Positions 41,475 through 59,799 are shown, counted from the first letter of the stretch. The stretch is DNA of 64,000 bases from Eubacteriales bacterium (GCA_045631825.1 JAZQVQ010000121.1:1129-65128); one strand, 5' to 3'. Notes: generated by a model from the sequence alone, not told the origin. A program made the numbers and translations.

Positions 41475-42372
41475 TGGATAAACGTGAACTGCTCAAAATG
41501 AGTTTTGAGGACAAAGTACAACGCAGTAAAGAGTTGATTTTAGAGTGGTATTTGCAATATCGGGGTAAAGTCTATGTATCGTTTTCCGGTGGGAAGGACT
41601 CAACAGTCCTTCTCCATCTGTGCCGCAGTATCAAAGGTTGCGAAAACGTGGCGGGTGTGTTCTCAGATACCGGGTTGGAATATCCGGAGATTAGGCAGTT
41701 TGTCAAGAAACAAGAAAATATCATTTGGATTAAACCAAAAATGACCTTTAAAGAGGTCATCGAGAAGTACGGCTGGCCCGTCGTGAGCAAAGAAGTCGCT
41801 CAGAAAATCTCAGAAATCCGGAATACGGGCAGTGAGAAACTTCGGAACAAACGCCTTTATGGTGATGAACGAGGGAATGGGAAGTTACCCGCCAAATGGT
41901 TGCCAATGGTGGACGCACCTTTCAAAATCACAAGTAAATGCTGTAATATTATGAAGAAAAACGTTTTTGCGAAGTTTGAGAGAGAGAGAGTGGGTTAAAA
42001 CCAATTTTGGGTGTTATGGCCACTGAAAGCAAATTACGGATGACAAAATTCCTTAAAGGGAATTGTAATGCGTTCAGTTCGGCACATCCAAAGTCTGAAC
42101 CGTTGTCTTTTTGGACAGAGGATGATATTTGGGAATATATCCGTAGATATAATGTGGAAATCTGCGAGGTTTATACCAAATGTGGGTTGAAAAGAACCGG
42201 ATGTATGTTCTGTATGTTCGGTTGTCATTTGGGTGGGGACAAAAGATTTGAGATTATGCGGAGGCAGTGGCCTAAACAATATGCCTATATTATGGATAAG
42301 TTGGGTGGGAGAGCGGTGTTCGAGGAATATATGAGAATTGCACACCTTGAAAATAAAAATAGGGTCGAATAA
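41471..42372 (+). pseudogene. PAPS-reductase-family (PP-loop ATPase) gene interrupted by a frameshift at a (GA)6 tract
   Basis: ORF 41471..41998 carries the PP-loop SFSGGKDS. ORF 42007..42372 (open from 41980) carries the C-terminal half, including a CMFCMFGC cluster. The two frames overlap only across GAGAGAGAGAGAG (41978-41990). Confidence 0.7.
41978..41990 (+). repeat. (GA)6G dinucleotide microsatellite
   Basis: Read directly from the sequence. It is located exactly at the frame switch of the split gene. Confidence 0.95.
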
Positions 42373-42435: not shown

Positions 42436-42449
42436 GAGTCGCAAGACTC
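42436..42449 (+). repeat. hairpin-B family copy (GAGTC-GCAA-GACTC)
   Basis: 5-bp stem with a GNRA loop, downstream of the PAPS-reductase gene. Confidence 0.8.
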
Positions 42450-42496
42450 CGACTTGATAAAAAATCTATTTTTTTTATTTTTTTATAAAATAATGC

Positions 42497-42525
42497 TTGA
42501 CATTAAAACGAAAGTGTGATATAAT
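42497..42525 (+). promoter_or_regulatory. consensus sigma70 promoter P1 with extended -10
   Basis: TTGACA, 17-nt spacer ending in TGA, TATAAT. An A/T-rich UP-like tract lies upstream. Confidence 0.8.
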
Positions 42526-42595
42526 GACTATATCAAGCAAGGGGATGGATTCGCTGTTCTCACTTGATAAAATAAAAATATAAGGATATAAAACA

Positions 42596-43252
42596 ATGAA
42601 AACAAAAAACACAAAAACAACAAAAAACACAAAAAACACAAAAAACACAAAAAAAGAATACACCAACAAAGCTTTAGAAAGCCAGCTAATTTTAATTAGG
42701 AAATCAATCAAAAAAGCAAGGGAAGCTTCGCAAGAATATACAGCTAATTTAATTTACGCTTTTTTACTGGATTCGCAAGAATACAAAAAAACAGAATCCC
42801 GAATCCGTTCCATTTTAGCTGATTCGTTCGGTAATGATTGGCAAGCCGTCAAAGGGTCTGAAAATAGAAAGATTCGCTATGCTAGAATCATTTTTGAATC
42901 AAGAATCGAAGCTTTGAAAAATTGCAAAAATCCAGATGAGGTTTTGCATTATCTGAAAACGAATCAAGAACAGCTGAGTCATTCAAAAGTTTTGAATATC
43001 AATACGAATCAAGCAAGCAAGCAAGCAAGCAAGAAAGCAATCAAGCAAGAAAGCAATCAAGAAAGCAATCAAGAAAGCAAGTCGAATCTTTATGGGAAGA
43101 ATCCGAATCCAGAATCCGAATCAATGGAAGTCATAGCTTTCATCAAGTCAGCTGTGAAAAATCCGAAGCTGTTAGCTTTGATGAATGAAAAGCTAGCCGA
43201 ATCAGGTATCCGAATCCAGTGCATAGCGAATCCGATTCGGAAAGTGGCATAG
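42596..43252 (+). CDS. repeat-rich basic hypothetical protein
   Basis: 218-aa ORF with its own promoter P1 and terminator. It contains KNT repeats (9-nt A-rich units), a period-4 AAGN tract (43011-43082) and a dense GAATC cluster. Confidence 0.55.
   Translation: MKTKNTKTTKNTKNTKNTKKEYTNKALESQLILIRKSIKKAREASQEYTANLIYAFLLDSQEYKKTESRIRSILADSFGNDWQAVKGSENRKIRYARIIFESRIEALKNCKNPDEVLHYLKTNQEQLSHSKVLNINTNQASKQASKKAIKQESNQESNQESKSNLYGKNPNPESESMEVIAFIKSAVKNPKLLALMNEKLAESGIRIQCIANPIRKVA
43011..43082 (+). repeat. period-4 AAGC/AAGA/AATC tract (18 units)
   Basis: AAGCAAGCAAGCAAGCAAGCAAGAAAGCAATC... read directly. It encodes QASKQASKKAIKQESNQESNQESK. Confidence 0.9.
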
Positions 43253-43254
43253 TC

Positions 43255-43304
43255 AAGAGAGAGTCGCAAGACTCTCTTTTTTCTTTTTTTTTTCTTTTTT
43301 TTTT
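43255..43304 (+). terminator. intrinsic terminator built on a hairpin-B core
   Basis: AAGAGAGAGTC-GCAA-GACTCTCTTTT stem (8-11 bp, GNRA loop), then a T-rich tract of about 27 nt. Confidence 0.85.
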
Positions 43305-43357
43305 AACTATGCGTAAGGGTTTTTGAAAAATTTGAATCGCCCGAATCGCAAAAATCG

Positions 43358-43373
43358 GAGTCGCAAGACTCCA
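43358..43373 (+). repeat. hairpin-B family copy (GGAGTC-GCAA-GACTCC)
   Basis: 6-bp stem, 24 nt upstream of the ATG at 43398. Confidence 0.85.
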
Positions 43374-43397
43374 ACAACATTTTGAAAGGAACAAACA

Positions 43398-43553
43398 ATG
43401 ATTAAAGGTGTAATCCAACAATTTTGTAAAACATTAGAACAAGCTGAATCTATCCAATCGGAACTTTACGAGAAATACGATTCTGTGCAGTTAGTATCTT
43501 TCCCAACGACACAGGAGGAAGGAATCTACATTTTTAAAGTAGAAAAAAGGTAA
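43398..43553 (+). CDS. small hypothetical protein (51 aa, below the ORF-track cutoff)
   Basis: ATG is preceded by the canonical hairpin-B, CAACAA and GAAAGGAA leader. The frame is open to TAA at 43551-43553. Confidence 0.45.
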   Translation: MIKGVIQQFCKTLEQAESIQSELYEKYDSVQLVSFPTTQEEGIYIFKVEKR

Positions 43554-43581
43554 TTTTTAGCATTTTTTCTACCTAAAACTC

Positions 43582-43610
43582 TTGACAATACAACAAAAGT
43601 ATGATATAAT
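43582..43610 (+). promoter_or_regulatory. consensus sigma70 promoter P2 with extended -10
   Basis: CTTGACAATACAACAAAAGTATGATATAAT. The upstream TTTTTTCTACCTAAAAC is shared with P4. Confidence 0.85.
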
Positions 43611-43650
43611 CATATCTGTAATCGGGACAACCCGAAACAACTCAACCAAT

Positions 43651-43666
43651 GGAGTCCCGAGACTCC
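43651..43666 (+). repeat. hairpin-B family copy (GGAGTC-CCGA-GACTCC)
   Basis: 28 nt upstream of the ATG at 43695. Confidence 0.9.
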
Positions 43667-43694
43667 AACAACCAACCTGAAAGGAACTAACGCA

Positions 43695-44003
43695 ATGAAA
43701 CACACATTATTTATCGGATTGAATGACAAGGACACGAAACAACAAGAAATTGACACTATCACAGCCTATAAAACGCTGATTCGCCTTATGACAAAGAACG
43801 GCTACACGGGTGGGACGATTTCCCAAGCCGAGGGATTTTATACTCATCAGGACGGCAGTTTTACAACCGAAAAAATGATTCGGGTGGAAATTATCGATGC
43901 CGATGCAGTCAAGACCACTAACCTCATCAACGACATCAAGGTAGCCTTGAATCAGGAATGCGTAGGCTTACAGGAAGAAGTCGTCAAAACGAGTTTTGTG
44001 TAG
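43695..44003 (+). CDS. hypothetical protein
   Basis: 102-aa ORF with a P2 / hairpin-B / GAAAGGAA leader. Confidence 0.65.
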   Translation: MKHTLFIGLNDKDTKQQEIDTITAYKTLIRLMTKNGYTGGTISQAEGFYTHQDGSFTTEKMIRVEIIDADAVKTTNLINDIKVALNQECVGLQEEVVKTSFV

Positions 44004-44040
44004 GTGGAGTTTCCCTTATATTTATCCACCTAGCACGAGC

Positions 44041-44074
44041 AGTTTGGAGTCCCGAGACTCCAAACTGTATTTTT
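44041..44074 (+). terminator. extended hairpin-B copy with T-run (terminator candidate)
   Basis: AGTTTGGAGTC-CCGA-GACTCCAAACT (11-bp stem), then GTATTTTT. Confidence 0.6.
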
Positions 44075-44102
44075 AACCACTAATACGAAAGGAAACTTTA
44101 CA

Positions 44103-44531
44103 ATGGCAACAGCTAATTTTAAACAAATGGACAAATTTGATTTGTGGGTATATGAACCAGATTTTTGTGGGGATTTACCCGAGAATCCAGAGGAATGCGA
44201 CTATGATTTCGCTTACGAGGATTTTACCACCAATTTCGACTCTTTACCAAAGCCCAACACGGACTTTTTTGACATCAGCCTGAAATCTGGGCATTATTCT
44301 GGGGTGCAGATTTATGTGGACTACAAGCCCGACTTATGCGACCCGAAGCATCTTACCAACGAGGACACACGGTATTTTTTGGATTTACCGTTATCGGTGG
44401 CGAAGCGTAGGCACGAAGCCGAAATCAAACGAATCCAAAAGTGGCTTGCCCGACTCGGCAGAATCGGGGCAGTCAAACTGATAGCAGTGGCACGATTTTC
44501 AAATGGGGAGGTATGGTATGAACGAGCCTAA
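44103..44531 (+). CDS. hypothetical protein
   Basis: 142-aa ORF with GAAAGGAAAC upstream. Confidence 0.65.
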   Translation: MATANFKQMDKFDLWVYEPDFCGDLPENPEECDYDFAYEDFTTNFDSLPKPNTDFFDISLKSGHYSGVQIYVDYKPDLCDPKHLTNEDTRYFLDLPLSVAKRRHEAEIKRIQKWLARLGRIGAVKLIAVARFSNGEVWYERA

Positions 44532-44685
44532 ACGCACGAGAACCTATCTAACGGCACACAAAGCCAACGGACGGTGGTATTTTAAAGAACACAAAACCAA
44601 AAAACCTGATTTAGAAACTTTATTAAACAATTATTTGAAAGGAACAAACTATGGCAACACCAAAAACATTAAAACGAATCGATAA
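44518..44685 (+). CDS. small basic hypothetical protein
   Basis: ATG at 44518 is preceded by GGGGAGG. It overlaps both neighbouring ORFs. Confidence 0.35.
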   Translation: MNEPKRTRTYLTAHKANGRWYFKEHKTKKPDLETLLNNYLKGTNYGNTKNIKTNR

Positions 44686-44845
44686 GGAAAAAGCCTTAAA
44701 GATTATGAACAAACATTATTTAAACGGAACAGGATATTACGAATACGGGGATTGTGGCGACTTTATCTACGAGGAACGGGGTCGTTTATATCTCATTCGG
44801 TCAACATTCGGACAAGAGTATGAAACAGGCGAGGTGGCACAATGA
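44651..44845 (+). CDS. hypothetical protein
   Basis: 64-aa ORF with GAAAGGAACAAACT upstream. Confidence 0.55.
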   Translation: MATPKTLKRIDKEKALKIMNKHYLNGTGYYEYGDCGDFIYEERGRLYLIRSTFGQEYETGEVAQ

Positions 44846-45087
44846 AGAAATACAGAGCAACGATAGAACGGAAAGTCGTCAAGACTTTACTTTTGACTTA
44901 CGAGTTCGAGTCCCGAGACTCCGTAGACCGTATCAAAGAGGAGTTGAGAAACGGTTGGGCTGACTCATACGCAACCCCGATTGACGAGGATTATTTTGAA
45001 GAGGAGTACAACGATAGGTTGTTGACGCTTGAATCTTTGGACGAGGATTCTGAACCGTTATTTGACTTTTTGAGTGATGAAAAATAA
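44842..45087 (+). CDS. acidic hypothetical protein (contains an in-frame hairpin-B copy)
   Basis: 81 aa, ATGA overlap, GAGGTGG upstream. GAGTCCCGAGACTCC at 44908-44922 reads E-S-R-D-S. Confidence 0.6.
   Translation: MKKYRATIERKVVKTLLLTYEFESRDSVDRIKEELRNGWADSYATPIDEDYFEEEYNDRLLTLESLDEDSEPLFDFLSDEK
44908..44922 (+). repeat. hairpin-B family copy inside a CDS
   Basis: GAGTC-CCGA-GACTCC, codon-aligned as ESRDS. Confidence 0.8.
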
Positions 45088-45101
45088 TGACAAAATGAAA
45101 A

Positions 45102-45131
45102 CAGTTGGGTGTTAAACCAAGCACCCAACTG
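45102..45131 (+). repeat. 10-bp perfect hairpin CAGTTGGGTG / CACCCAACTG
   Basis: Follows the stop at 45087. It shares the CCAAGCA / CCCAACTGC motif with 45196-45214 and with the P4 leader. Confidence 0.7.
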
Positions 45132-45214
45132 CCCATACCACACTACTGACGATTCGCAACCGAAAACCAAACTGCTCGTTTTTGGGTATTCAAAACCCAA
45201 GCACCCAAGCAGTT

Positions 45215-45229
45215 GGAGTCCCGAGACTC
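45215..45229 (+). repeat. hairpin-B family copy
   Basis: GGAGTC-CCGA-GACTC, 12 nt upstream of the P3 -35 hexamer. Confidence 0.85.
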
Positions 45230-45240
45230 TGAAAAACCTC

Positions 45241-45269
45241 TTGACTTTTCTACCTGAATAAGGTAGAAT
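45241..45269 (+). promoter_or_regulatory. sigma70 promoter P3 with embedded palindromic operator candidate
   Basis: TTGACT, 17-nt spacer, TAGAAT. The palindrome TCTACCT-gaata-AGGTAGA spans the spacer and the -10. Confidence 0.7.
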
Positions 45270-45362
45270 TACTATTGCGACTAGGGAGTCTAGACCCGAA
45301 AAGATAGCAACTCACTATCCTGTCGCAATATGTTTTTGAGTTGTTTTTATAGGAGTATAAAA

Positions 45363-45866
45363 ATGATAAATTGTGATTACGAATTTTCATTTATCTTTGG
45401 AAAAATAGGGACTTGCACTTACTGTGGCGAACCTGCTGATACGATTGAACATTTAATACCTTGGTCTGTGATTACGAGCAGTGATTCGAGTAGAAAGATA
45501 AAGGGTTTCTGCACTTACGCTTGCCGAGAATGTAATTGTTTCGCATCAAATCGGGTTTTTCACACTTTTGAGGAACGAGTAAAATTTGTCCACGAAAAAT
45601 TGAGAAAGAAATACAAGCGATATATGGGGGTTGTTTGGGATAGTGGTGAATTAAACCAAACCACTGGAAATTTGAAAAAATATATACGAGGTTGTAATAC
45701 TTTGAACAAGATTGCTAGGCAACGATTAGCATATCCCACCTCAAATGAATTTTGGGAAATCCTAAATTCGGCTCGTGAGGATGCCTATTTAGACCCCAGA
45801 ATCCCAAAAAATCTTTTGGAATTTCTCGTCCCAACAGATTGGACACCAAGTTGGGTTGAAAAATAA
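45363..45866 (+). CDS. HNH-like endonuclease candidate
   Basis: ATG is preceded by AGGAG. CTYCGEPADTIEHLIPWS ... CRECNCFASN resembles an HNH/zinc-ribbon core. Confidence 0.5.
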   Translation: MINCDYEFSFIFGKIGTCTYCGEPADTIEHLIPWSVITSSDSSRKIKGFCTYACRECNCFASNRVFHTFEERVKFVHEKLRKKYKRYMGVVWDSGELNQTTGNLKKYIRGCNTLNKIARQRLAYPTSNEFWEILNSAREDAYLDPRIPKNLLEFLVPTDWTPSWVEK

Positions 45867-46049
45867 AAAACAAGGAAAGGGGGTTTTTAAGCGTTTCCTA
45901 TCACGGATACCTAAAAACCCCCGTTTGCCTCTGTAAGACCCCTTTACGGCGTTTTTAGAGGCATTTTAACTCGGAAGTATATCCCCAACTTTCGAGTTTT
46001 TTAAATTTTTAACCATTTTGGGGATATTTTTAACACGAAAGGATACACA

Positions 46050-46442
46050 ATGATAAAAATCGTAGAAGAAATCGGAATTAGAGAGTTTAAACCTTGGTCG
46101 GGGGCAGTAGACCCCTTCAATGAAATTGAAGAATGTGGCAAACTGGACCAATTTGAGCAGTTGATTGAACAGTTATACCCAGAGGGAATTTCTCGCACTG
46201 GTATCAATGATTGGCTCTGGCACGAAACAGAAAGCCTCTACGAGGCTCTCGGTATGATACGCTCGGAATCTGAACTCCAAGACATCATCACCGACAATGT
46301 CATAGAACCAAACGCTGATTTAGACCAATTTCTCGACTCAGAGGATTTTAACTGCTATGAACGGGACAAAATCAGAACCAATTTTGAGGATTGGGTGGAC
46401 GATTACCAGTTTTTGCACGATTTGGGAAAATATGCCGACTAA
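46050..46442 (+). CDS. strongly acidic hypothetical protein
   Basis: 130 aa, roughly one quarter Asp/Glu by eye, with GAAAGGATAC upstream. Confidence 0.65.
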   Translation: MIKIVEEIGIREFKPWSGAVDPFNEIEECGKLDQFEQLIEQLYPEGISRTGINDWLWHETESLYEALGMIRSESELQDIITDNVIEPNADLDQFLDSEDFNCYERDKIRTNFEDWVDDYQFLHDLGKYAD

Positions 46443-46532
46443 AGTTTGGTAGTATCGGTGGAGGCAGTCGAGAGGTGGGCGTGGGCAGTTTTTGACCAAA
46501 ATTGCCCAAATTAACAAAAGTTGTAATTTTTA

Positions 46533-46724
46533 CACTTAAGAAGCAGAAGTCATTGATTTTATTGAATCTGGTATGTCACTTTACTTTTTCTAACTCGGTT
46601 TCCCTGAAAAAAAATGGGGTAAAAATATATAAAAAGGGTAAAAAATATATATATAAAAGCGAGTTGAAGAATCTTAAGTGACATATCGGATTCAATGTTT
46701 TCAATGACTTACGCTTCTTAAGTG
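46533..46724 (+). repeat. large inverted repeat (49-nt arms, 94-nt AT-rich spacer)
   Basis: Arms 46533-46581 and 46676-46724 pair at 41 Watson-Crick plus 3 G-T positions out of 49. The core contains GGGTAAAAA(A)TATATA twice. Confidence 0.85.
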
Positions 46725-46750
46725 ACATTTTGAGAACCCCAAAATGGCAT

Positions 46751-46771
46751 TTTTGTCTAATTTTTGTCTAA
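46751..46771 (+). repeat. TTTTGTCTAA doublet (copy B)
   Basis: TTTTGTCTAATTTTTGTCTAA. Compare 42404-42424. Confidence 0.8.
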
Positions 46772-46881
46772 AATTACCCATTTTTCATAAACGAAAGTAG
46801 TAAAGTCAACCAAGTGTATAAGCATACCAAAGTTTTAACATCAAAAAATCACAAAAAACTGATTTTTTCTACCTAAAACAC

Positions 46882-46910
46882 TTGACAATACTACAAAAGT
46901 ATGCTATAAT
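46882..46910 (+). promoter_or_regulatory. consensus sigma70 promoter P4 with extended -10
   Basis: CTTGACAATACTACAAAAGTATGCTATAAT. Confidence 0.85.
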
Positions 46911-46918
46911 AAAGGTAT

Positions 46919-46947
46919 CCAAGCAGGAAAAGGGACTCACTGCTTGG
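46919..46947 (+). repeat. 5'-terminal leader hairpin (hairpin C, copy 1)
   Basis: CCAAGCAG-GAAAAGGGACTCA-CTGCTTGG, starting about 8 nt after the -10 of P4. Confidence 0.75.
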
Positions 46948-46986
46948 GTATTTCAATCCAACTGCTTGGGTGGTTCGGATTACACA

Positions 46987-47034
46987 CCCCACAACCCCAC
47001 AACCCAGCAACCCCACAACCCCACAACCCCACAA
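46987..47034 (+). repeat. octamer tandem repeat (CCCCACAA) x6
   Basis: Five exact units plus one CCCAGCAA variant, in the 5' leader of the 47073 gene. The complement is TTGTGGGG x6. Confidence 0.95.
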
Positions 47035-47036
47035 CA

Positions 47037-47050
47037 GAGTCCCGAGACTC
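47037..47050 (+). repeat. hairpin-B family copy
   Basis: GAGTC-CCGA-GACTC, 22 nt upstream of the ATG at 47073. Confidence 0.85.
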
Positions 47051-47072
47051 CAACAGATGAAAGGAAAAGCAA

Positions 47073-47366
47073 ATGAAAACGGAGTATATTTCGCAAGAGA
47101 ACGCAGACAGATTGTATCGGATATTAAACCGTGCAAGTGGTTGTTATTTCAAGGTTTATGACACAGAGTCGCACGTTATTACGACGAGGTTTCCAGAGAA
47201 GTTGATTATGGCGATTGACGGAGGGGACGAGGAGATTCGGATAGAGATTTACGACCACAGCGAGCGTGTATATCGTGGGACATTGTATTTACTGCCGTAT
47301 GAGGAGGATTCGATGCCTTACGATTGGTCTGACAACGCATTTATGGACAAGTTATTAGATTTTTGA
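47073..47366 (+). CDS. hypothetical protein
   Basis: 97-aa ORF with GAAAGGAAAAGCAA upstream. Confidence 0.65.
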   Translation: MKTEYISQENADRLYRILNRASGCYFKVYDTESHVITTRFPEKLIMAIDGGDEEIRIEIYDHSERVYRGTLYLLPYEEDSMPYDWSDNAFMDKLLDF

Positions 47367-47411
47367 GGGCGTAGAAAACTATCTAAACTAAAATGATTTG
47401 TCAAGTAAAAC

Positions 47412-47435
47412 CCACCTCGCCTATCGGCTCGGTGG
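47412..47435 (+). repeat. hairpin-A family copy (CCACC stem, TATC loop)
   Basis: CCACCTCGCC-TATC-GGCTCGGTGG. Confidence 0.85.
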
Positions 47436-47448
47436 AGGAAGATGACAC

Positions 47449-47464
47449 GGAGTCCCGAGACTCC
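47449..47464 (+). repeat. hairpin-B family copy
   Basis: GGAGTC-CCGA-GACTCC, 34 nt upstream of the ATG at 47499. Confidence 0.9.
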
Positions 47465-47498
47465 ACATTACAACTAAAAATTGAGAAAGGAAAATAAA

Positions 47499-47948
47499 AT
47501 GGAAAAAACTATAACATTTAAAATTGATAAGAATCGCAAAGCAGAGATTGAGATTACCTTGGGTGATGAGGGACGGTTTTCTGTCTGTGGTAGTTTGTAT
47601 GAAAAGAATCGGTCCAAATGGGAGTGTGAGTATTGTGGACAATGTTTGGACTCGCTTTCCGAGTTGATTACTGACCCATTATTTACGCAGATTTATTTCT
47701 TATGGAAACGGTATCATTTGAATGATTTGCACGCAGGGACTCCTGTGCAGGAGTATGCGTTGGAACATTCCCCCATTGGTTCTTTGTTGGAAGCTGATTA
47801 CAAACACCGTTGTGAGTATTTAAAATCCATTGGTTTATATGAGGTCAGTGGGTATAAGTATGGACACGGTTGGTTGACTGAAACTATCGAACCACACGAT
47901 TTGGAATTGATAAAAAGCATCGCAACAGGCGAACGCAACCTCGCCTGA
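47499..47948 (+). CDS. hypothetical protein
   Basis: ATG follows GAAAGGAAAATAAA. Its TGA stop lies in the loop of the next hairpin-A copy. Confidence 0.65.
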   Translation: MEKTITFKIDKNRKAEIEITLGDEGRFSVCGSLYEKNRSKWECEYCGQCLDSLSELITDPLFTQIYFLWKRYHLNDLHAGTPVQEYALEHSPIGSLLEADYKHRCEYLKSIGLYEVSGYKYGHGWLTETIEPHDLELIKSIATGERNLA

Positions 47949-47960
47949 CGGCTCGGTTGC
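47935..47960 (+). repeat. hairpin-A family copy (GCAACC stem, TGAC loop)
   Basis: GCAACCTCGCC-TGAC-GGCTCGGTTGC. Confidence 0.85.
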
Positions 47961-47970
47961 TAAATAAAAC

Positions 47971-47986
47971 GGAGTCCCGAGACTCC
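47971..47986 (+). repeat. hairpin-B family copy
   Basis: GGAGTC-CCGA-GACTCC, 23 nt upstream of the ATG at 48010. Confidence 0.9.
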
Positions 47987-48009
47987 AACAACCAAGAAAG
48001 GAAAATAAA

Positions 48010-48357
48010 ATGATTACAGTGCAAATGGAAGAAAGTGATGTTTTGGATTTATTTATCCAGCGTATAAATTATTGGACAACAGACCCAGTCGTTGCCAATT
48101 TATATACCGATATGTATGAAAGATTGCTCGAAGATGGGTGTTTCAATCACACCCAACTGGATATACAGAGAATCGTAGATAACGATTATGTGAATAACTG
48201 CTCAATCATATATTCAGACGACCCAGATTTCGATAAATACTTTAAGATTTACGAGGAACGGGGTGCGTGCGATATATCTGACGAGGATTTATCTTATTCA
48301 TATATCGAATCGGTAGATAATGACGATGAACCAACAATGATGTTGGTGCGTAGATAA
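48010..48357 (+). CDS. acidic hypothetical protein
   Basis: 115-aa ORF with GAAAGGAAAATAAA upstream. Confidence 0.65.
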   Translation: MITVQMEESDVLDLFIQRINYWTTDPVVANLYTDMYERLLEDGCFNHTQLDIQRIVDNDYVNNCSIIYSDDPDFDKYFKIYEERGACDISDEDLSYSYIESVDNDDEPTMMLVRR

Positions 48358-48401
48358 AAAAAAAAACCCGTCAAGTGCTTTTTTATCCGAAAAGCACTTG
48401 A
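48356..48401. other. A10 tract plus 13-bp perfect hairpin that includes the -35 of P5
   Basis: GTCAAGTGCTTTT (48369-81) pairs with AAAAGCACTTGAC (48389-401). Read on the minus strand, this is a hairpin followed by a T-run. Confidence 0.6.
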
Positions 48402-48425
48402 CAATATAACCAAAGTATGCTATAA
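48397..48425 (+). promoter_or_regulatory. consensus sigma70 promoter P5 with extended -10
   Basis: CTTGACAATATAACCAAAGTATGCTATAAT. Confidence 0.85.
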
Positions 48426-48433
48426 TGTATTTA

Positions 48434-48462
48434 TCAAGGCAGGAAAAGGGACTCACTGCTTT
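48434..48462 (+). repeat. 5'-terminal leader hairpin (hairpin C, copy 2)
   Basis: CAAGGCAG-GAAAAGGGACTCA-CTGCTTTG. The 13-nt loop is identical to copy 1, and the stem carries a paired G/T insertion. Confidence 0.7.
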
Positions 48463-48469
48463 GACCGAA

Positions 48470-48493
48470 CCCACCTCGCCTATCGGCTCGGTG
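48470..48493 (+). repeat. hairpin-A family copy
   Basis: CCACCTCGCC-TATC-GGCTCGGTGG. Confidence 0.85.
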
Positions 48494-48500
48494 GAGAACA

Positions 48501-48514
48501 GAGTCCCGAGACTC
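48501..48514 (+). repeat. hairpin-B family copy
   Basis: GAGTC-CCGA-GACTC, flanked on both sides by hairpin-A copies. Confidence 0.85.
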
Positions 48515-48519
48515 AAACA

Positions 48520-48541
48520 CACCTCGCCTATCGGCTCGGTG
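48520..48541 (+). repeat. hairpin-A family copy (shortened outer stem)
   Basis: CACCTCGCC-TATC-GGCTCGGTG. Confidence 0.8.
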
Positions 48542-48562
48542 GAAGAATGAAAGGAAATTACA

Positions 48563-49054
48563 ATGAGAGAATCAACAAAATATAATAAAATCATCGGTAT
48601 TGCGAATGGTTCGGTTTATGTGTTAGAAGAAACCTTTACATACTCTGGCGAGTTTAAAGGTTGCTGTGGATACACAATGTCCACGATTTCGCAGGATTAT
48701 ATTGACGAACGCAATGATGTCGATTGGTTGTGCGATAATTATGATTATGTATGGCGTGAGGCTGTGCAAGCACAGCAAACAACAATGGGTCTTGAGGATT
48801 TTATGGACGATTGGGTGCGTAATTGTTGTGAGTTGTTTCCGACAGACGACTCCTCGTTTCGTATGGATTTCGAACAAGCGTTGGAAGATGCTCGTCCAGA
48901 GGTTGCCAAAAAAGTTATTGAGTATTTTGGTGCTGACAGCGAGGATTTTGGTGCTTGGAACAACGAGGGTTGTGGGCGTTGTTTTCACAAAGATATGGAA
49001 TGGGACGAATTGTTTGAACCAGAACTTTGGGAAATGATTCGTGCTACCGAATAG
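48563..49054 (+). CDS. acidic, Cys-containing hypothetical protein
   Basis: 163-aa ORF with GAAAGGAAATTACA upstream. Confidence 0.65.
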   Translation: MRESTKYNKIIGIANGSVYVLEETFTYSGEFKGCCGYTMSTISQDYIDERNDVDWLCDNYDYVWREAVQAQQTTMGLEDFMDDWVRNCCELFPTDDSSFRMDFEQALEDARPEVAKKVIEYFGADSEDFGAWNNEGCGRCFHKDMEWDELFEPELWEMIRATE

Positions 49055-49060
49055 ATGAAC

Positions 49061-49086
49061 GCAACCTCGCCTGACGGCTCGGTTGC
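49061..49086 (+). repeat. hairpin-A family copy (GCAACC stem, TGAC loop)
   Basis: The 35-nt block GAACGCAACCTCGCCTGACGGCTCGGTTGCTAAAT is identical to 47931-47965. Confidence 0.85.
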
Positions 49087-49100
49087 TAAATGAAAAACTC

Positions 49101-49123
49101 GGAGTCCCGAGTCTCGGGACTCC
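49101..49123 (+). repeat. expanded hairpin-B variant (23-nt perfect palindrome)
   Basis: GGAGTCCCGAG-T-CTCGGGACTCC, 23 nt upstream of the ATG at 49147. Confidence 0.9.
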
Positions 49124-49146
49124 ATAACACAAGAAAGGAAAATAAA

Positions 49147-49740
49147 ATGAAAACAGTAAATTACACGAATTTGTCAACAGCAATTTTTCAAGGGTTTTAT
49201 GAATCAAACTTGTATAATGCTGATAGCGAATACTATGCTAGAGAATACTTGGGGGAAGATTGCGAACTGCAAGATTTTAAAGGTTTTTGTAATAAGGTAG
49301 CCAAAAAGGCAGGCGATTTGTTGCACGAACAGGTTGTGTGGGACGACTCGCTTATCCAACGGATTGATTTCGTTGAGTTAGATAGTCCAGAGTTTTACAA
49401 TTACCGAACGGACCGATTGGTTTTGTCTGTTGATGTAGACACGGACGGTTTAGAGGAGTATTGCTTTGAAGAACACGCCGAAAAGTTTGCGAAGTATTTG
49501 GAAGATAATTTTACTTCTTATGACGGTTTCCATTCGTTTATTCGCAACACGCTCGGTGGTTTCAAGGAACAGTATGTTGAGGAAGATAAAAAGGGTCGCT
49601 GTTTGGATGTAATGATTGAGTTTTATATCTTACAAAACATCGATTTGGATTCGTATCAACTGGCTTTGGTTGAGTGTGCGAATGAAGAACTTTATAACTA
49701 TATGACAACCACCTCGCCTGACGGCTCGGTGGAGAACTGA
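49147..49740 (+). CDS. acidic hypothetical protein
   Basis: ATG follows GAAAGGAAAATAAA. The C-terminal codons TTSPDGSVEN are encoded by a hairpin-A copy. Confidence 0.65.
   Translation: MKTVNYTNLSTAIFQGFYESNLYNADSEYYAREYLGEDCELQDFKGFCNKVAKKAGDLLHEQVVWDDSLIQRIDFVELDSPEFYNYRTDRLVLSVDVDTDGLEEYCFEEHAEKFAKYLEDNFTSYDGFHSFIRNTLGGFKEQYVEEDKKGRCLDVMIEFYILQNIDLDSYQLALVECANEELYNYMTTTSPDGSVEN
49709..49732 (+). repeat. hairpin-A family copy (CCACC stem, TGAC loop) inside a CDS 3' end
   Basis: CCACCTCGCC-TGAC-GGCTCGGTGG. Confidence 0.85.
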
Positions 49741-49752
49741 AAGGAAAATAAA

Positions 49753-50031
49753 ATGAAAAATATACCGACAATTAGTTATGGTTTAATGGCAGAAGTTGTC
49801 AGAACCATTGAACACTTAAAAACTTTTAACTTTACCGATTTATCCGAAGTATCAGAACGACTTGATGTTTATGATTTTGGTGAGTATTATTGTGATTTCA
49901 CATTTTCATTGGGTGATTCGGAAATCGTGATTGAGGGAAGTTATTATATCGGGGATAAGGGTAACATAACTCTTTCCGATTGCTTTTCCGTATTTAATTC
50001 AGAAGCAGAACTTTTGTTGGAGGTAGATTAA
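49753..50031 (+). CDS. hypothetical protein
   Basis: 92-aa ORF with GAAAGGAAAATAAA upstream. Confidence 0.6.
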   Translation: MKNIPTISYGLMAEVVRTIEHLKTFNFTDLSEVSERLDVYDFGEYYCDFTFSLGDSEIVIEGSYYIGDKGNITLSDCFSVFNSEAELLLEVD

Positions 50032-50325
50032 ATGAAAATACTAATTGACACAAATTACAACACAGAACTTATGGCAGAAATTGGCTGTGAAATACAGGAA
50101 GTTAAACGTTTTATCGAAAATAAAACCTTTGAGGAATGTTATGATAATTTCCCGTGGGAAATAACCTGTGTTGTCACAGACGACTCTTTGTTCGATTTCT
50201 ATACGGATAGTTTGTCTGGAACAATCGAAAAGGGTGTAGACGGTAAAGCACAAACATCTGGTGTTTGGAGTTATTACCGAAACGGCGAATGTATTTTTGA
50301 TTTTGAGGAGAGTCACGATGATTAA
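50032..50325 (+). CDS. hypothetical protein
   Basis: 97-aa ORF that abuts the previous stop. Confidence 0.6.
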   Translation: MKILIDTNYNTELMAEIGCEIQEVKRFIENKTFEECYDNFPWEITCVVTDDSLFDFYTDSLSGTIEKGVDGKAQTSGVWSYYRNGECIFDFEESHDD

Positions 50326-50572
50326 ATGTGATGAAGATGGAAACGAAGTCAACACTGGCTCGTATTGGAAGTTTATTGAGGCTTATTATCCTAATTACGA
50401 TTCTTCCGATGAAATATGCGATAGCAACGATTTCAGCTTGTGGTTAGAGTGCGAACGAGCCAACCCACCGATGGGCTTGGAAAATTGTATTAAAAATGAA
50501 GTAGTGATTTTTGAAAAAGCACTGCGAAACTATATTAAATTAAGAAAGGAAAATAACAATGAAAACTTATGA
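50318..50572 (+). CDS. hypothetical protein
   Basis: ATG at 50318 has GAGGAG upstream. The ORF overlaps the previous stop. Confidence 0.55.
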   Translation: MIKCDEDGNEVNTGSYWKFIEAYYPNYDSSDEICDSNDFSLWLECERANPPMGLENCIKNEVVIFEKALRNYIKLRKENNNENL

Positions 50573-50798
50573 AATTACTTATTGGGAAAAAGAAAGTGTT
50601 TGGGTTGAAAGACGCACACTGGTAAAAACGAAACACGATTTGAATAAAGCCATTGAAGATGGGGACGAAGAAATCCTGAAAGAAGCCATCGAAGACAACG
50701 CTCTTGATTATATTCAAGCTGATTATAATTGGGAAACGGCAGAACACGAAGATTATGACTTCGAAGAAGTTATGGTCGAGGAGATTCAAAATGATTAA
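50559..50798 (+). CDS. acidic hypothetical protein
   Basis: 79-aa ORF with GAAAGGAAAATAAC upstream. Confidence 0.55.
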   Translation: MKTYEITYWEKESVWVERRTLVKTKHDLNKAIEDGDEEILKEAIEDNALDYIQADYNWETAEHEDYDFEEVMVEEIQND

Positions 50799-51024
50799 AA
50801 TATACGACTTACCGAAAAGCAATAACAAAGCAAAGGTTGTTATCGATGATGAGGGTGTTTATACTCTCGTGAGTTATAACACACCCATTATCGAACAATA
50901 TCCAGACGGCACATTAAAACGCCTTTACGATGGGTGGACTGCCACCACAGGGCGACACATCAAAGCGTTCTGTGAACTGGATAAAAAGAAGTTTATGGCA
51001 TTACCATTAAATGAAAGGATTTAA
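50791..51024 (+). CDS. hypothetical protein
   Basis: ATG at 50791 has GAGGAG upstream. The ORF overlaps the previous stop. Confidence 0.55.
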   Translation: MIKIYDLPKSNNKAKVVIDDEGVYTLVSYNTPIIEQYPDGTLKRLYDGWTATTGRHIKAFCELDKKKFMALPLNERI

Positions 51025-51026
51025 AA

Positions 51027-51227
51027 ATGGAAGATATAGAAGATTTGAAATATCGAATTGAAGAACTTGAACAACAAAACTCGTTTGAATGTCAATGCGT
51101 ATCAGAACGGGACGAAAAGTTGGCTAAAATCCGACGGCGTATCCTATTGGACGTTTATCCGAAAGCGATAAACAACCCCGACATTCAACACCAACTTATT
51201 GAACTTTTAAAATTGATTGAGGAATGA
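51027..51227 (+). CDS. hypothetical coiled-coil protein
   Basis: 66-aa ORF with AAAGGA upstream. Confidence 0.55.
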   Translation: MEDIEDLKYRIEELEQQNSFECQCVSERDEKLAKIRRRILLDVYPKAINNPDIQHQLIELLKLIEE

Positions 51228-51230
51228 AAA

Positions 51231-51554
51231 ATGACAACGGTTAACATTGATTTACAAGAAGTGGCAATCAGTGCTTTCAAAGAGATTTTAGAGGAATACT
51301 CTTTGGATTGTTTGGTTTATGATATTGCTATCGCAAACCCACAGTGGTGGTCAGATACATTCAAACCTGTAATTGATGAATCAATTAAACAGGCTTTTAT
51401 GAAAAAAGGTGAAAAGATTTTGAAGGAAGTAATGGAATCGGTTATTTCTGAATCTGATTTAGATTATCTAATTGAACGAAAAGTTGAAGAAATCGTCACC
51501 CCTATTGTTAAAGAACAAATTATGAAAGGATTTAAAAATGCAAAAGGAATTTGA
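51231..51554 (+). CDS. hypothetical protein
   Basis: 107-aa ORF, tightly packed against its neighbours. Confidence 0.55.
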   Translation: MTTVNIDLQEVAISAFKEILEEYSLDCLVYDIAIANPQWWSDTFKPVIDESIKQAFMKKGEKILKEVMESVISESDLDYLIERKVEEIVTPIVKEQIMKGFKNAKGI

Positions 51555-52146
51555 ATTATACAGAAAAATGAACAACCTTACTAAAAGAGATTTTTCGAAT
51601 ATGTTGGGTGTTTCACAGAACACTTATAATTATTGGCTTTCTGGTGATAAAAAACCCAGAACTCGATTTACAGCAAACTTACAGGCGTTTTATGAAGCCA
51701 ACATCAAAGGTAAAGTAGAGTCCCGAGACTCCACAGAACCAACTTTGAAAGGGCGTAAAAAAGAAAAACGCACCCTTTATGATATGATGGACCTGTTGTC
51801 GGAATTAAAAGATGGGAATACGGTTTATTTAACCAATACACCTTATTCTTTGAAAATTGTAGACGGGTTTATCGTTCGATATAACGGTGATGACATTATA
51901 TCAATCGGCTCTCCGGTGTTGTCGTCTGACGAATATCACGTCTATAAACCGATTCCTTTGAATATCCAAATAGGAAAACGCTATCTGACGGCTAAGGGTG
52001 AAAAGGTTACGATTTACACCAAAGACGATGATGACACATTCAAAGGTATATTTGACAACACAGGGAATACGAATTTTTATAATTCAAACGGACTCGTTTG
52101 TTCCATTGGTGGTAGTTACGAAGATAATTTAATTGAGGAGATTTAA
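51538..52146 (+). CDS. Xre-type HTH domain protein (contains an in-frame hairpin-B copy)
   Basis: N-terminal LTKRDFSNMLGVSQNTYNYWLSG. GAGTCCCGAGACTCC at 51718-51732 reads ESRDS. Confidence 0.6.
   Translation: MQKEFELYRKMNNLTKRDFSNMLGVSQNTYNYWLSGDKKPRTRFTANLQAFYEANIKGKVESRDSTEPTLKGRKKEKRTLYDMMDLLSELKDGNTVYLTNTPYSLKIVDGFIVRYNGDDIISIGSPVLSSDEYHVYKPIPLNIQIGKRYLTAKGEKVTIYTKDDDDTFKGIFDNTGNTNFYNSNGLVCSIGGSYEDNLIEEI
51718..51732 (+). repeat. hairpin-B family copy inside a CDS
   Basis: GAGTC-CCGA-GACTCC, codon-aligned as ESRDS, in the same frame as the 44908 copy. Confidence 0.8.
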
Positions 52147-52147
52147 A

Positions 52148-52417
52148 ATGCAAAATAATGTAAAAGTAGTATTGACAGACGGAGAAATTAAGTTTTATAA
52201 TGGGGACGAAGAGTTCTCGAGTATGGAAGAGGCTTTTATGGGTAAGAAAATATCCCAACCCGATTTTATAACGGTTAGAACGGATATGCTCGTTGACCTT
52301 TATAAAGAGGCAAAAGCCTGTTGTGGACGTTCGGTTATAGACGAACCCTGCAAATCTTATAATCGTGGAATTATGTATGCTATTGAAAGGATTTTACCGA
52401 ATGTTGAGAGCATCTGA
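52148..52417 (+). CDS. hypothetical protein
   Basis: ATG at 52148 has GAGGAG upstream. Confidence 0.5.
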   Translation: MQNNVKVVLTDGEIKFYNGDEEFSSMEEAFMGKKISQPDFITVRTDMLVDLYKEAKACCGRSVIDEPCKSYNRGIMYAIERILPNVESI

Positions 52418-52619
52418 AACAGACGTTGTTGAATTATTACTGCAAGGACTTAGTAATAAAGACATTGCAGATAAATTGCAAATAAAAGAAGCAACGGTTA
52501 AATGTCATCTTTACCGAGTTTATCAAAAATTAAATATTAAATCGGATAGAGAACTTATCGCAAAATTTTATAAAAACGAACTGGAGGTTATAAATGAATC
52601 TATTGCAAGAAACCATTGA
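52401..52619 (+). CDS. LuxR/GerE-type HTH protein (stand-alone)
   Basis: ETDVVELLLQGLSNKDIADKLQIKEATVKCHLYRVYQKLNI. Confidence 0.65.
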   Translation: MLRASETDVVELLLQGLSNKDIADKLQIKEATVKCHLYRVYQKLNIKSDRELIAKFYKNELEVINESIARNH

Positions 52620-54377: not shown

Positions 54378-54599
54378 ATGTTTAACTTTGTAAAAAACAT
54401 ATTCAAAAAGAAAAAAGCTAAAACGTTTGAGGTGGCACCCCTTGTAACGGTTGCTATGACAGACGTTGAATTTTTAAGATTGTTTCCTAACCCGTATCGG
54501 GAGGCGGTAGAATTGACGAAACGTAGAAAAGGAAACAAAACATCATTTAAAAAGGGAAATATCCCGTGGAATAAAGGAAAAAAGAAAAATGGAAAATAA
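54378..54599 (+). CDS. basic hypothetical protein
   Basis: 73-aa ORF with AAGGAG upstream. Confidence 0.5.
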   Translation: MFNFVKNIFKKKKAKTFEVAPLVTVAMTDVEFLRLFPNPYREAVELTKRRKGNKTSFKKGNIPWNKGKKKNGK

Positions 54600-54819
54600 A
54601 GAAAGATTACTCTCATTTGTGGAACGTATTGAACGTTTAGAAGAAGAGAAAAAAGAATTAACAGCAGATATTAGTGAAGTTTTGAAGGAAGCGAAAGGTG
54701 AAGGTTTTGATACGAAAGTCATCAAAGAAATTATCAAACTTCGCAGAATGCTCGCTACCGATAGAGCCGAATACGAATATCTGAGAGATGAATACAAGAA
54801 ATTATTGGGTATCGAATAA
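54589..54819 (+). CDS. GapR-like (DUF2312) DNA-binding protein
   Basis: LLSFVERIERLEEEKKELTADISEVLKEAKGEGFDTKVIKEIIKLRRM matches the DUF2312/GapR signature as I recall it. Confidence 0.7.
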   Translation: MENKERLLSFVERIERLEEEKKELTADISEVLKEAKGEGFDTKVIKEIIKLRRMLATDRAEYEYLRDEYKKLLGIE

Positions 54820-55004
54820 TGGAAATATCAATCGGAGATTCAGTGACCTTTAACGGTTCGGATTATTTCGTCGTTACGAACATTACGACGGAAGAAATCA
54901 AAACTAGAAAAAAAGGCACACTGGTTTTTGTTAAATTATATTTTGGGGATGCTCACCAACCTATGTATAAACATAGCGTTGTTGGTGTAAAAAAGTTGGC
55001 CTAA
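54819..55004 (+). CDS. hypothetical protein
   Basis: 61-aa ORF with an ATAATG overlap-type junction. Confidence 0.5.
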   Translation: MEISIGDSVTFNGSDYFVVTNITTEEIKTRKKGTLVFVKLYFGDAHQPMYKHSVVGVKKLA

Positions 55005-55071
55005 AGAGTCTCCTTTCAGAGCGTGGGGAGTGGTTGCCTCAAAAGAACAAATGCCGTACATCAGACTCTTT
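55003..55071 (+). repeat. hairpin-B-like arms AAAGAGTCT / AGACTCTTT enclosing 51 nt
   Basis: A 9-bp inverted repeat in the 156-nt gap upstream of the helicase gene. Confidence 0.6.
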
Positions 55072-59445: not shown

Positions 59446-59799
59446 ATGATTGTAAAAGGACCGAAAGATGTTCAAATTGGAAACCTGTATATGTATGATA
59501 GATGGCATTATGGGTGTCACAAATTAGACTGTGGGGTTTGTATTGGTGTAACTGAAAAAAGTGTGACCTTCCGAGACCCAGAACGCTCTTACCTGAGTGG
59601 ACACGAGGTTAAGTTTATATCCAACGCTTATCCCAAAACTGAATACACAATGATTGCCGATTATGACAAACGTATTTTTAACGCTTACAATAAGCGTATA
59701 GACAATCTGGGGAACGATTTGAAAAATATTTGGGAAGGGAACATTAAAAAAGAACGGAAACGTAAGAAGAAAGGCTTTTGGAAAAGGTGGTTTAAATGA
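59446..59799 (+). CDS. hypothetical protein with basic C-terminus
   Basis: ATG at 59446 has GAGGTG upstream. Confidence 0.55.
   Translation: MIVKGPKDVQIGNLYMYDRWHYGCHKLDCGVCIGVTEKSVTFRDPERSYLSGHEVKFISNAYPKTEYTMIADYDKRIFNAYNKRIDNLGNDLKNIWEGNIKKERKRKKKGFWKRWFK

Follow-up and report, generated by a model that had tools for sequence, protein, structure and literature searches.

A lineage-specific dyad repeat in the early region of a JWF/Seuss-like siphovirus, possibly acting as an RNA hairpin tag of early genes

Introduction

Dispersed, conserved short dyads have so far been noted in a few mycobacteriophage clusters, and their function has never been explained. Here we describe an element of this kind in a phage region of 64,000 nucleotides from Eubacteriales bacterium (GCA_045631825.1, JAZQVQ010000121.1:1129-65128; this whole stretch is called the window hereafter): a 14-16 nt inverted repeat, GAGTC-N4-GACTC or hairpin A, which occurs 13 times in the early region and may act at the RNA level as a tag of early transcription units. 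RNA signals in early transcripts are familiar from phage T7, where irregular RNase III hairpins of ~20 bp or more are cut by the host enzyme, and from phage T4, where RegB cuts at GGAG and RegA binds AU-rich ribosome-binding sites.

Several described repeat systems serve as points of comparison. The repeats of Cluster O mycobacteriophages are 17 bp long, with the sequence TGTTCGG-NNN-CCGAACA; their function is unexplained and their reader has been inferred (PMC4351075). In the non-structural genome half, Cluster K phages carry start-associated sequences (SAS) and extended start-associated sequences (ESAS) just upstream of the start codons of some genes, and a role in translation is suspected (PMC3203893). 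The stoperators of Cluster A are asymmetric 13-mers, oriented with transcription, that serve the monomeric immunity repressor of a temperate phage (PMC6550527, PMC9283540), and the promoter early stem-loop elements (PeSLs) of T4-type phages are composites of a stem-loop and an early sigma-70 promoter that flank variable ORFs in the hyperplastic regions of T4-like myoviruses (PMC2839356, PMC4122927).

Results

Copy number, position and sequence of the repeat

An exact motif scan of the window returned 13 matches to GAGTCNNNNGACTC, starting at 42436, 43261, 43358, 43652, 44047, 44908, 45216, 47037, 47450, 47972, 48501, 49109 and 51718. All of them lie within 42436-51731 and none elsewhere in the window, whereas dinucleotide-preserving shuffles of the same sequence contain GAGTC-N4-GACTC 0.02 times on average and never more than once. 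The 13 early-region hairpins reported by the original prediction are therefore real, and the feature is strongly non-random and evolutionarily maintained. Imperfect copies are rare, and the 6-bp form GGAGTC..GACTCC is present in 5 of the 13. The loops also agree with the earlier description, being CCGA in nine copies and the GNRA loop GCAA in three (42436, 43261 and 43358), with TCGG in the remaining copy (49109); in no window copy is the loop palindromic. Since the GAGTC/GACTC arms are themselves palindromic, the orientation of a copy can be defined by its loop alone. By this measure the proposed single orientation applies to 12 copies, whereas the loop at 49109 is inverted because that copy is the inverted half of a 23-nt palindrome (49101-49123).

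The repeat is embedded in a region of about 35 small open reading frames (ORFs), each preceded by the block (T/A)GAAAGGAA-N7-ATG, which bears out the ribosome-binding block described before. Five perfect TTGACA-N17-TATAAT promoters drive it on the + strand, at 42497-42525 (P1, with 12 of 12 consensus matches and a TG extension), 43582-43610 (P2), 46882-46910 (P3), 48398-48426 (P4) and 52172-52201. Eight of the 13 copies end 22-48 nt upstream of GAAAGGAA-ATG starts, a range that our recomputation reproduced: the distances from the 3' end of the hairpin to the ATG preceded by a Shine-Dalgarno (SD) sequence are 26, 29, 42, 22, 35, 24, 48 and 24 nt. The conserved CAACAA tract said to follow the hairpins is narrower than supposed, as exact CAACA(A/G) stands 3' of four copies and the remaining flanks are merely CA-rich; this CA-rich 3' flank is a property of the sense strand only. 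A hairpin followed by a U-run, as in intrinsic terminators, is found at 43255-43304 and 44039-44075, where the copies form the tips of the stems, and not at the other 11 copies. The copies at 42436 and 45216 are each followed by a promoter, and those at 44908 and 51718 fall within ORFs, at offsets of 66 and 180 nt from the ATGs, both being read in frame as E-S-R-D-S just as had been noticed. Coding indeed fails to account for the family, whose members are mostly in leaders or between cistrons of an early region driven by host promoters.

Predicted folding and covariation of an extended stem

In every leader, folding predictions place the hairpin in an independent fold and leave the ribosome-binding site open. 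The longest stem, at 44039-44068, keeps its 13 pairs among four phages, with three compensatory pairs (double substitutions) and a G.U pair on the sense strand, and ends in an invariant TTTTTAACC tail. In its alignment 98% of cells are paired, compared with 25-38% in slid controls.

The individual copies on the + strand

Copy 1 (GAGTC-GCAA-GACTC, 42436-42449) lies 3' of the PAPS-reductase ORF and 48 nt 5' of the P1 -35 element, and copy 7 (45215-45230) lies 11 nt 5' of a promoter-like TTGACT-N17-TAGAAT that precedes an HNH endonuclease ORF; the original prediction likewise had two copies upstream of promoters, and it was right about the true intrinsic terminator at 43255. There, at 43255-43304, copy 2 (core 43261-43274) tops an 11-bp stem (43255-43280) followed by a long T-run, 3' of ORF1 (42596-43252), the first early gene. 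Copy 3 (GGAGTC-GCAA-GACTCC, 43357-43372), with CAACAAC and GAAAGGAA downstream, is 26 nt from the ATG at 43398, and copy 4 (GGAGTC-CCGA-GACTCC, 43651-43666), at about +34 from the P2 transcription start, is 29 nt from the ATG at 43695. Copy 5 (core 44047-44060) is the tip of the 13-bp stem at 44039-44068, which is followed by TATTTTTAACC and stands 5' of the ATG at 44103; the extension of this stem had been recognized, but at 44041-44066 and with 11 pairs rather than 13. The structure looks like a terminator or attenuator. Copy 6 (44908-44921) is one of the two in-frame copies, within the ORF at 44842-45087.

Further downstream, copy 8 (47037-47050) is in the P3 leader at about +120, 22 nt from the ATG at 47073. 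Copies 9 (47449-47464) and 10 (47971-47986) are intercistronic, each coming after a hairpin of a second family (hairpin B, described below), with 35 nt to the ATG at 47499 and 24 nt to that at 48010, respectively. Copy 11 (48501-48514), in the P4 leader at about +68, has a B hairpin on each side and is 48 nt from the ATG at 48563. Copy 12 (49101-49123), 24 nt from the ATG at 49147, is the perfect 23-nt palindrome announced earlier, GGAGTCCCGAG-T-CTCGGGACTCC, and consists of two overlapping copies in opposite orientation. Copy 13 (51718-51731) falls in the gene of an XRE-family helix-turn-helix (HTH) protein, in the linker after the HTH domain. A split version is present at 55003-55071, 5' of a helicase gene, with the arms AAAGAGTCT (55003-55011) and AGACTCTTT (55063-55071) around a 51-nt insert; these arms resemble hairpin A (GAGTC/GACTC) and not, as previously thought, hairpin B.

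The phage and its relatives

The - strand of the window encodes a lambda GpA-type large terminase and the capsid and tail genes, and the + strand a primase-polymerase (prim-pol)/SF3 helicase, a family-B DNA polymerase, SbcCD-like proteins, a flap nuclease, a helicase and two DNA methyltransferases. Neither an integrase nor an immunity repressor was found in these 64 kb of the 67-kb genome. No GenBank phage gave a nucleotide match to the window; the terminase is 36-39% identical to those of Pseudoalteromonas KB12-38, Achromobacter JWF, Acinetobacter Mystique/TCUP2199 and Caulobacter Seuss, and the prim-pol has hundreds of metagenomic relatives on contigs of 67-77 kb, some of them from pig gut. 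Metagenome-assembled genome bins that contain relatives are labelled Bacteroidales, whereas the consensus sigma-70 promoters, the strong SD use, an Rz-like spanin match and a GapR-like DNA-binding protein (54589-54819; PF10073, E = 3e-25) speak against a Bacteroidales host. GapR, which we take to be typical of Alphaproteobacteria and their phages, is a hint at the host of this phage that is at odds with those bins.

Dyads in related genomes

For comparison we used about 20 other relatives, including the cultured phages JWF and Seuss; metagenomic relatives carry L numbers here. Most of them have a 14-16 nt dyad of their own, with invariant arms, in the early region only. In L108 (prim-pol 99.9% identical), the arms and loops of the window recur at orthologous sites, and arm conservation stays at 100% even beside flanks of 57-60% identity. 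L013, from pig gut (prim-pol 97% identical), has GAGTC/GACTC arms around the loops ATAT, ACGT, CCAA and CCGA, and retains the in-ORF copy orthologous to 44908, there with the loop CCAA. The expectation that relatives would conserve the stem while varying the loop was borne out among these close relatives, but the sister phage L006 (prim-pol 92% identical) has other arms. It contains no GAGTC-N4-GACTC; its same leaders carry 10-11 copies of GACTC-N4/5-GAGTC, the loop being different in each, and two decayed GAGTCCCGA remnants. Relative to the window, L006 has flanks of 50-87% identity, yet each of its arms shows a flipped middle base pair and the loops are replaced. Loop length is 4 or 5 nt in L006 and 5 nt in L009. 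Within L006 and L013, no compensatory change was seen among ~75 stem pairs, despite loops that have diverged at nearly every position.

In the more distant relatives, the ~10 kb on the downstream side of prim-pol contain a repeated dyad peculiar to each: GACTC-ACGAC-GAGTC in L009, TGATTC-CTAG-GAATCA in L025/L028, TTGAC-TCGA-GTCAA in L027, GGATTCC-GTTTCACAGTGAAAC-GGAATCC in L026, GGGAAC-AC-GTTCCC in L024, ACTAGGT-N5-ACCTAGT in L017, GTTCCAACGTTGGAAC in L032, GTGCAG-NN-CTGCAC in L099, GTGCGAC-N-GTCGCAC in L064, TCACGG-NN-CCGTGA in L043, CCATAT-NN-ATATGG in L076, AGTCCTAGCTAGGACT in L068, AGGTTGACGTCAACCT in L106 and GGTTCAA-S-TTGAACC in the L045 group. JWF has GGTTCG-TNA-CGAACC 12 times (10 unique), confined to the last 12.5 kb at the right end and to the 1,466-bp terminal repeat, and not once in the other 67 kb; 7 of the 10 unique dyads stand 13-25 nt before an SD and ATG. 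In Seuss, TTTACC-NNN-GGTAAA occurs eight times and encloses the annotated SD (GAGG), which is 3-8 nt from the ATG. Not every terminase relative shares the trait, since no dominant dyad was found in the first 16 kb of Acinetobacter phage TCUP2199.

In a set of 20 related genomes, an SD and a start codon stand at no more than 55 nt from 63 of the 162 motif copies, compared with 14.7% of random positions (p = 4e-14), a figure to which short intergenic gaps contribute. An exact-motif scan of IMG/VR gave just five unrelated single-copy matches. A literature search turned up no account of these dyads in the JWF/Seuss-like family: 'putative terminators' are the sole related annotation in the JWF GenBank record, and the TCUP2199 paper is silent on dyads.

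Judged from these comparisons, selection is on the arm sequence and not on pairing alone, because the loops are saturated, stem compensation within genomes is zero and all copies switch together between lineages. Invariant arms, free loops and the concerted switch together argue for a sequence-specific reader, and one that differs between sister phages would therefore probably be phage-encoded.

A second hairpin family

Hairpin B (CCACCTCGCCTATCGGCTCGGTGG) is found on the + strand at 47412-47435, 47935-47960, 48471-48494, 48519-48542, 49061-49086 and 49709-49732, at, over or just 3' of stop codons and usually directly 5' of an A hairpin. These hairpins (CCACCTCGCCTRWCGGCTCGGTGG or GCAACC...GGTTGC) share a conserved 2x2 internal loop (UC/UC), and their outer stem covaries between CCACC/GGTGG and GCAACC/GGTTGC, a covariation of the RNA type. 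The family is conserved in L006. The B-A-B composite at 48471-48542 is the sole region that folds into a long interrupted helix.

Candidate readers

The genes of two HTH proteins lie at the far end of the tagged region. The XRE-family protein (51538-52146, + strand) is a candidate reader and carries copy 13 in its own gene; the GerE/LuxR-type protein (52365-52619, + strand; 84 aa), which resembles sigma-70 region 4, is a second candidate regulator. Other proteins were considered and set aside. ORF1 gives an all-helical AlphaFold model (predicted local distance difference test score 66) with no fold match, and L013 keeps the hairpins without ORF1 at this locus. The recognition helix of a 65-aa MerR/HTH_17 protein upstream of prim-pol is conserved across genomes with different motifs. 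In prim-pol itself, 60 substitutions separating GAGTC-type from GACTC-type phages are spread along the protein and confounded with phylogeny. For the products of orfA and orfC, which lie upstream of prim-pol, nothing matched in PDB, Pfam or PHROG, and single-protein scans of IMG/VR and a JGI metagenome scan for the XRE protein found nothing.

Other features of the early region

Right after the P3 and P4 start sites, at 46921-46950 and 48435-48462, stands a conserved leader hairpin, CAAGCAG-GAAAAGGGACTCA-CTGCTTG, within an 89-nt promoter cassette that is 82-97% identical between the two copies and with L006. Before P3, at 46533-46724, there is an imperfect inverted repeat with 69-nt arms (78% complementary), a 54-nt spacer and an AT-rich core, to which a structure at 16400-16580 of L006 is analogous; it could be a replication origin or other cis site. 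Tandem repeats comprise CCCCACAA octamers in the P3 leader (46986-47035), 9-nt units at 42599-42654 that encode T-K-N repeats at the ORF1 N-terminus, and AAGC(A/T)A units at 43007-43086 that encode a low-complexity stretch within ORF1; unit numbers vary among homologues.

The PAPS-reductase-domain gene is split into two ORFs (41471-41998 and 42007-42372) where L006 has one intact 298-aa ORF, and is likely a pseudogene or a sequencing error; in L024 this locus holds an N6/N4 DNA methyltransferase instead. Of the two HNH endonuclease genes (45330-45866 and 60347-61123), the former has its own promoter-like site and an A hairpin 5' and is missing at that position in L006, which suggests a homing-type insertion. 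GATC is absent from the window, where ~230 sites would be expected; there are 0-1 sites in L006, L017, L026, L027, L108 and L115 and ~1.5 per kb in L009, L024 and L025. This looks like strong, strain-dependent avoidance of GATC-specific restriction.

Discussion

A proposed role as RNA tags of early units

At a probability that we put at roughly 40%, the 13 copies are lineage-specific tags of early units that act mainly as RNA hairpins, punctuating or controlling the early mRNAs. Host RNA polymerase would transcribe the tags from the five consensus promoters, and each, whether in a 5' leader or intercistronic, would fold as a stable tetraloop hairpin of 5-6 bp, with an unstructured CA-rich spacer and then the GAAAGGAA ribosome-binding site on its 3' side. 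Such hairpins would punctuate polycistronic early mRNAs, insulate each ribosome-binding site and cap mRNA segments; where outer stem and U-run are added, they would terminate or attenuate transcription. A sequence-specific factor, probably phage-encoded, would probably bind or cut the tags and so control translation or decay of early mRNAs, in a role comparable to that of T4 RegA/RegB. This proposal builds on direct observations, namely the copies and their positions, their predicted folding, the covariation of the extended stem, lineage specificity and the concerted switch. From these we infer action at the RNA level, a reader and the effect of that reader. Other traits also suit a hairpin: the non-palindromic loops of the window, three of them GNRA, the variable loop length of relatives, the CA-rich 3' flank of the sense strand, the RNA-type covariation and conserved internal loop of the neighbouring B hairpins, and the SD within the Seuss dyad.

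It is also possible, though rather doubtful, that a fast-evolving phage factor reads a programmable 'address tag', a lineage-specific dyad or hairpin, before early genes in JWF/Seuss-like siphoviruses and exerts its control after initiation, as a roadblock, by cleavage or by a translational block. If so, tag specificity would switch between sisters (GAGTC to GACTC) in the manner of immunity specificities, and co-infecting relatives would not cross-regulate one another. Early-gene control and phage-phage insulation of this type would be new for lytic phages, and the same principle might explain the orphan Cluster O and ESAS repeats.

A number of findings weigh against an RNA-level role. Free loops with fixed arms are the classic signature of a dimeric DNA binder, and known binders of RNA hairpins mostly recognize the loop rather than the stem. 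The dyad symmetry enters the centre in at least 12 of 21 relatives, leaving 0-2 unpaired nt, unusable by an RNA hairpin, and in several relatives asymmetric centres occur in both orientations. G.U pairs do not clearly outnumber A.C pairs among imperfect copies (6 and 4). Two copies lie within ORFs and two upstream of promoters, and the start-codon association could simply stem from a compact genome in which intergenic gaps are short. We found no candidate for an RNA-binding protein or nuclease that would act on the tags. Rfam gave no gathering-score match in the window and, in 42-52.2 kb, matches at chance level only at E <= 1.

Alternative explanations

A different reading is a close competitor and, in our view, only slightly less probable: the dyads would be double-stranded DNA sites of a dimeric phage-encoded regulator, with the XRE or GerE-type HTH protein as candidates, that shuts off or attenuates early transcription by the host polymerase, as in the Cluster A stoperators or the Cluster O proposal, and the RNA hairpins would arise as a side effect, to be co-opted as terminators now and then. 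Invariant arms, a free centre and lineage-specific sequence fit such operators well. So do the symmetric centres (GTGCAG-NN-CTGCAC, GGGAAC-AC-GTTCCC, GGTTCGT-N-ACGAACC, AGGTTGACGTCAACCT and GTTCCAACGTTGGAAC), the two orientations of asymmetric centres (5/4 in L076, 3/3 in L043, 3/3 in L045), the placement of copies downstream of P2, P3 and P4, the tolerance of copies within ORFs, the location of the HTH genes at the distal end of the tagged region and the variable recognition helix of XRE homologues; precedents exist (PMC4351075, PMC6550527, PMC9283540). However, the lack of any palindromic centre in the window is harder to reconcile with operators, the spacing is not constant, differing by 1-2 bp both within a phage and from one sister phage to another, and at two sites covariation preserves the pairing of the outer stems, for which a DNA site has no use. 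Covariation of the XRE helix with the motif is weakly negative in the one informative relative, L115, which has a different helix and still carries a perfect GAGTC-GCGA-GACTC together with a decayed in-gene copy. Neither a repressor nor an integrase was found in the window, so this is not a lysogenic stoperator system. Punctuation by structure without any reader, through exonuclease barriers, weak attenuators or insulators of ribosome-binding sites, seems improbable to us. It would explain identical arms just by the copying of leader cassettes along with new genes and by the purging of single stem mutations, and it is favoured in the window by the near-uniform loops, as copying predicts, by the cassette-like succession of hairpin, CA-tract and ribosome-binding site, and by the mosaic block boundaries with L006 that adjoin hairpins. 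Yet loops in L006 and L013 have diverged without any of the ~75 stem pairs being compensated within a genome, orthologous arms switch in concert with the core changing faster than its flanks, and perfect arms beside 57%-identical flanks exceed the needs of pairing.

The same mosaic early region could suggest that the repeats are PeSL-like recombination modules, providing microhomology for shuffling small early genes among related phages. A hairpin-bracketed ORF (48563-49054) is missing in L006 between the same promoter and the next gene, homology blocks begin 11-20 nt past hairpins, and lineage-specific stem-loops are also a feature of PeSLs (PMC4122927). We nevertheless consider this very improbable: the arms of sister phages differ and therefore cannot supply homology between them, 14 nt is very short, just 2 of 13 copies are promoter-coupled, and the Cluster O authors saw no link between repeats and rearrangements (PMC4351075). 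No more credit can be given to an epigenetic signal, in which the arms would matter as CcrM/HinfI-type GANTC sites and a methyltransferase or methyl-reader would act on the early region, although the earlier remark that every copy carries GANTC sites proved pertinent. Arms of the form GANTC, with N being G, C, T or A and spacings of 0, 4-5 or 15 nt, are found in the window, L006, L009, L025/L028, L026 and L027, and most of the low-GC gut clade has such arms. The segment 42300-43500 (1.2 kb) has 31 such sites in all three reading frames against a background of ~3 per kb, a ~10-fold enrichment, and the first early gene has 20, beyond what codon choice provides (10.8 +/- 1.9 in synonymous-codon shuffles, p < 0.001). 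An excess over synonymous shuffles is seen in 6 of 7 genomes, the exception being L024, whose dyad is not GANTC. Moreover, the phage encodes, besides the GapR-like protein, two DNA methyltransferases (58204-58803, phrog_799; 59796-60350, MT-A70/phrog_359). This idea nonetheless does not account for the constant complementarity of N from one arm to the other. Arms other than GANTC are used by the high-GC relatives and by L017, L024 and L032, and Seuss, whose Caulobacter host has CcrM, is ~6-fold depleted (13 sites in the 23 kb at 62000-85138, compared with ~80). Orphan half-sites are not generally enriched for non-GANTC motifs. By analogy with the 1,466-bp repeat of JWF, the GANTC-dense ORF1 segment may be a terminal repeat.

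Significance

The same kind of element noted in those few mycobacteriophage clusters is found here across a large unrelated family of ~70-83 kb siphoviruses of gut, soil and water. The strict confinement to the early region, the start-site association and the clean natural swap of specificity between sisters make the system tractable, and cultured representatives exist in JWF (Achromobacter) and Seuss (Caulobacter). The identity of the reader would reveal how early expression is timed or insulated, and could yield orthogonal, programmable RNA or DNA tag-reader pairs.

Comparison with known systems

Of the systems suggested by the original prediction, T7 early mRNA and T4 share with the window the principle of intercistronic RNA signals in early transcripts that set processing, stability or translation, but neither uses a 5-6 bp hairpin with lineage-specific invariant arms. 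T7-type RNase III sites are not what we see, the stems being too short (5-6 bp in 10 copies and 11-13 bp in three). The PeSLs are closer in their lineage-specific stem-loops, near-consensus sigma-70 promoters, small variable early ORFs and mosaic boundaries. The likeness to a PeSL cassette breaks down because 11 of 13 copies lack promoter coupling and the phage is of another type, a JWF/Seuss-like siphovirus with a siphovirus-like gene set and a lambda GpA-type terminase; in addition, the window hairpins mostly abut the ribosome-binding site and have invariant arms where PeSLs follow a loose consensus. A lambdoid nut/boxB system, in which an N protein reads a conserved GNRA-like pentaloop together with boxA at one or two sites per operon, was also rejected, as loops are free among relatives, there are 13 sites and no N-like protein was found.

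With the Cluster A stoperators the window shares many identical sites in short intergenic gaps across transcription units and downstream of promoters; stoperator sequences also co-evolve with their reader between related phages, as the tags here may do. The window sites are not stoperators, being dyad-symmetric in a sequence where neither integrase nor immunity repressor was found. Cluster K is nearer, in that ESAS are likewise inverted repeats with a variable spacer and a consensus that differs between subclusters. Its SAS, an asymmetric 13-mer, includes the ribosome-binding site, 3-8 bp ahead of the start, and the arms of its ESAS are 17 bp long and imperfect, whereas the window has a perfect 14-16 nt dyad that ends 22-48 nt before the ATG and is separated from the SD by a CA-rich spacer; the window dyads are thus not of the SAS type, although the dyad of Seuss does include the SD.

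The window repeats have the traits by which the dispersed dyads of Cluster O are described (PMC4351075). Both are many short dyads of a non-temperate phage, with invariant arms and a variable centre, in mixed intergenic and in-ORF positions without a fixed relation to promoters, and denser towards one genome end. Cluster O has dozens of copies with 7-bp arms, about one third of them in ORFs (PMC4351075). The window, from an unrelated family and host, has 13 copies exclusively in the first ~10 kb of the early region, with 5-6 bp arms and a 4-nt centre, most of them tied to starts and some in terminators, and its sister lineages have arms of their own. Taken together, the Cluster O repeats and the SAS/ESAS of Cluster K are the best-matching known systems.

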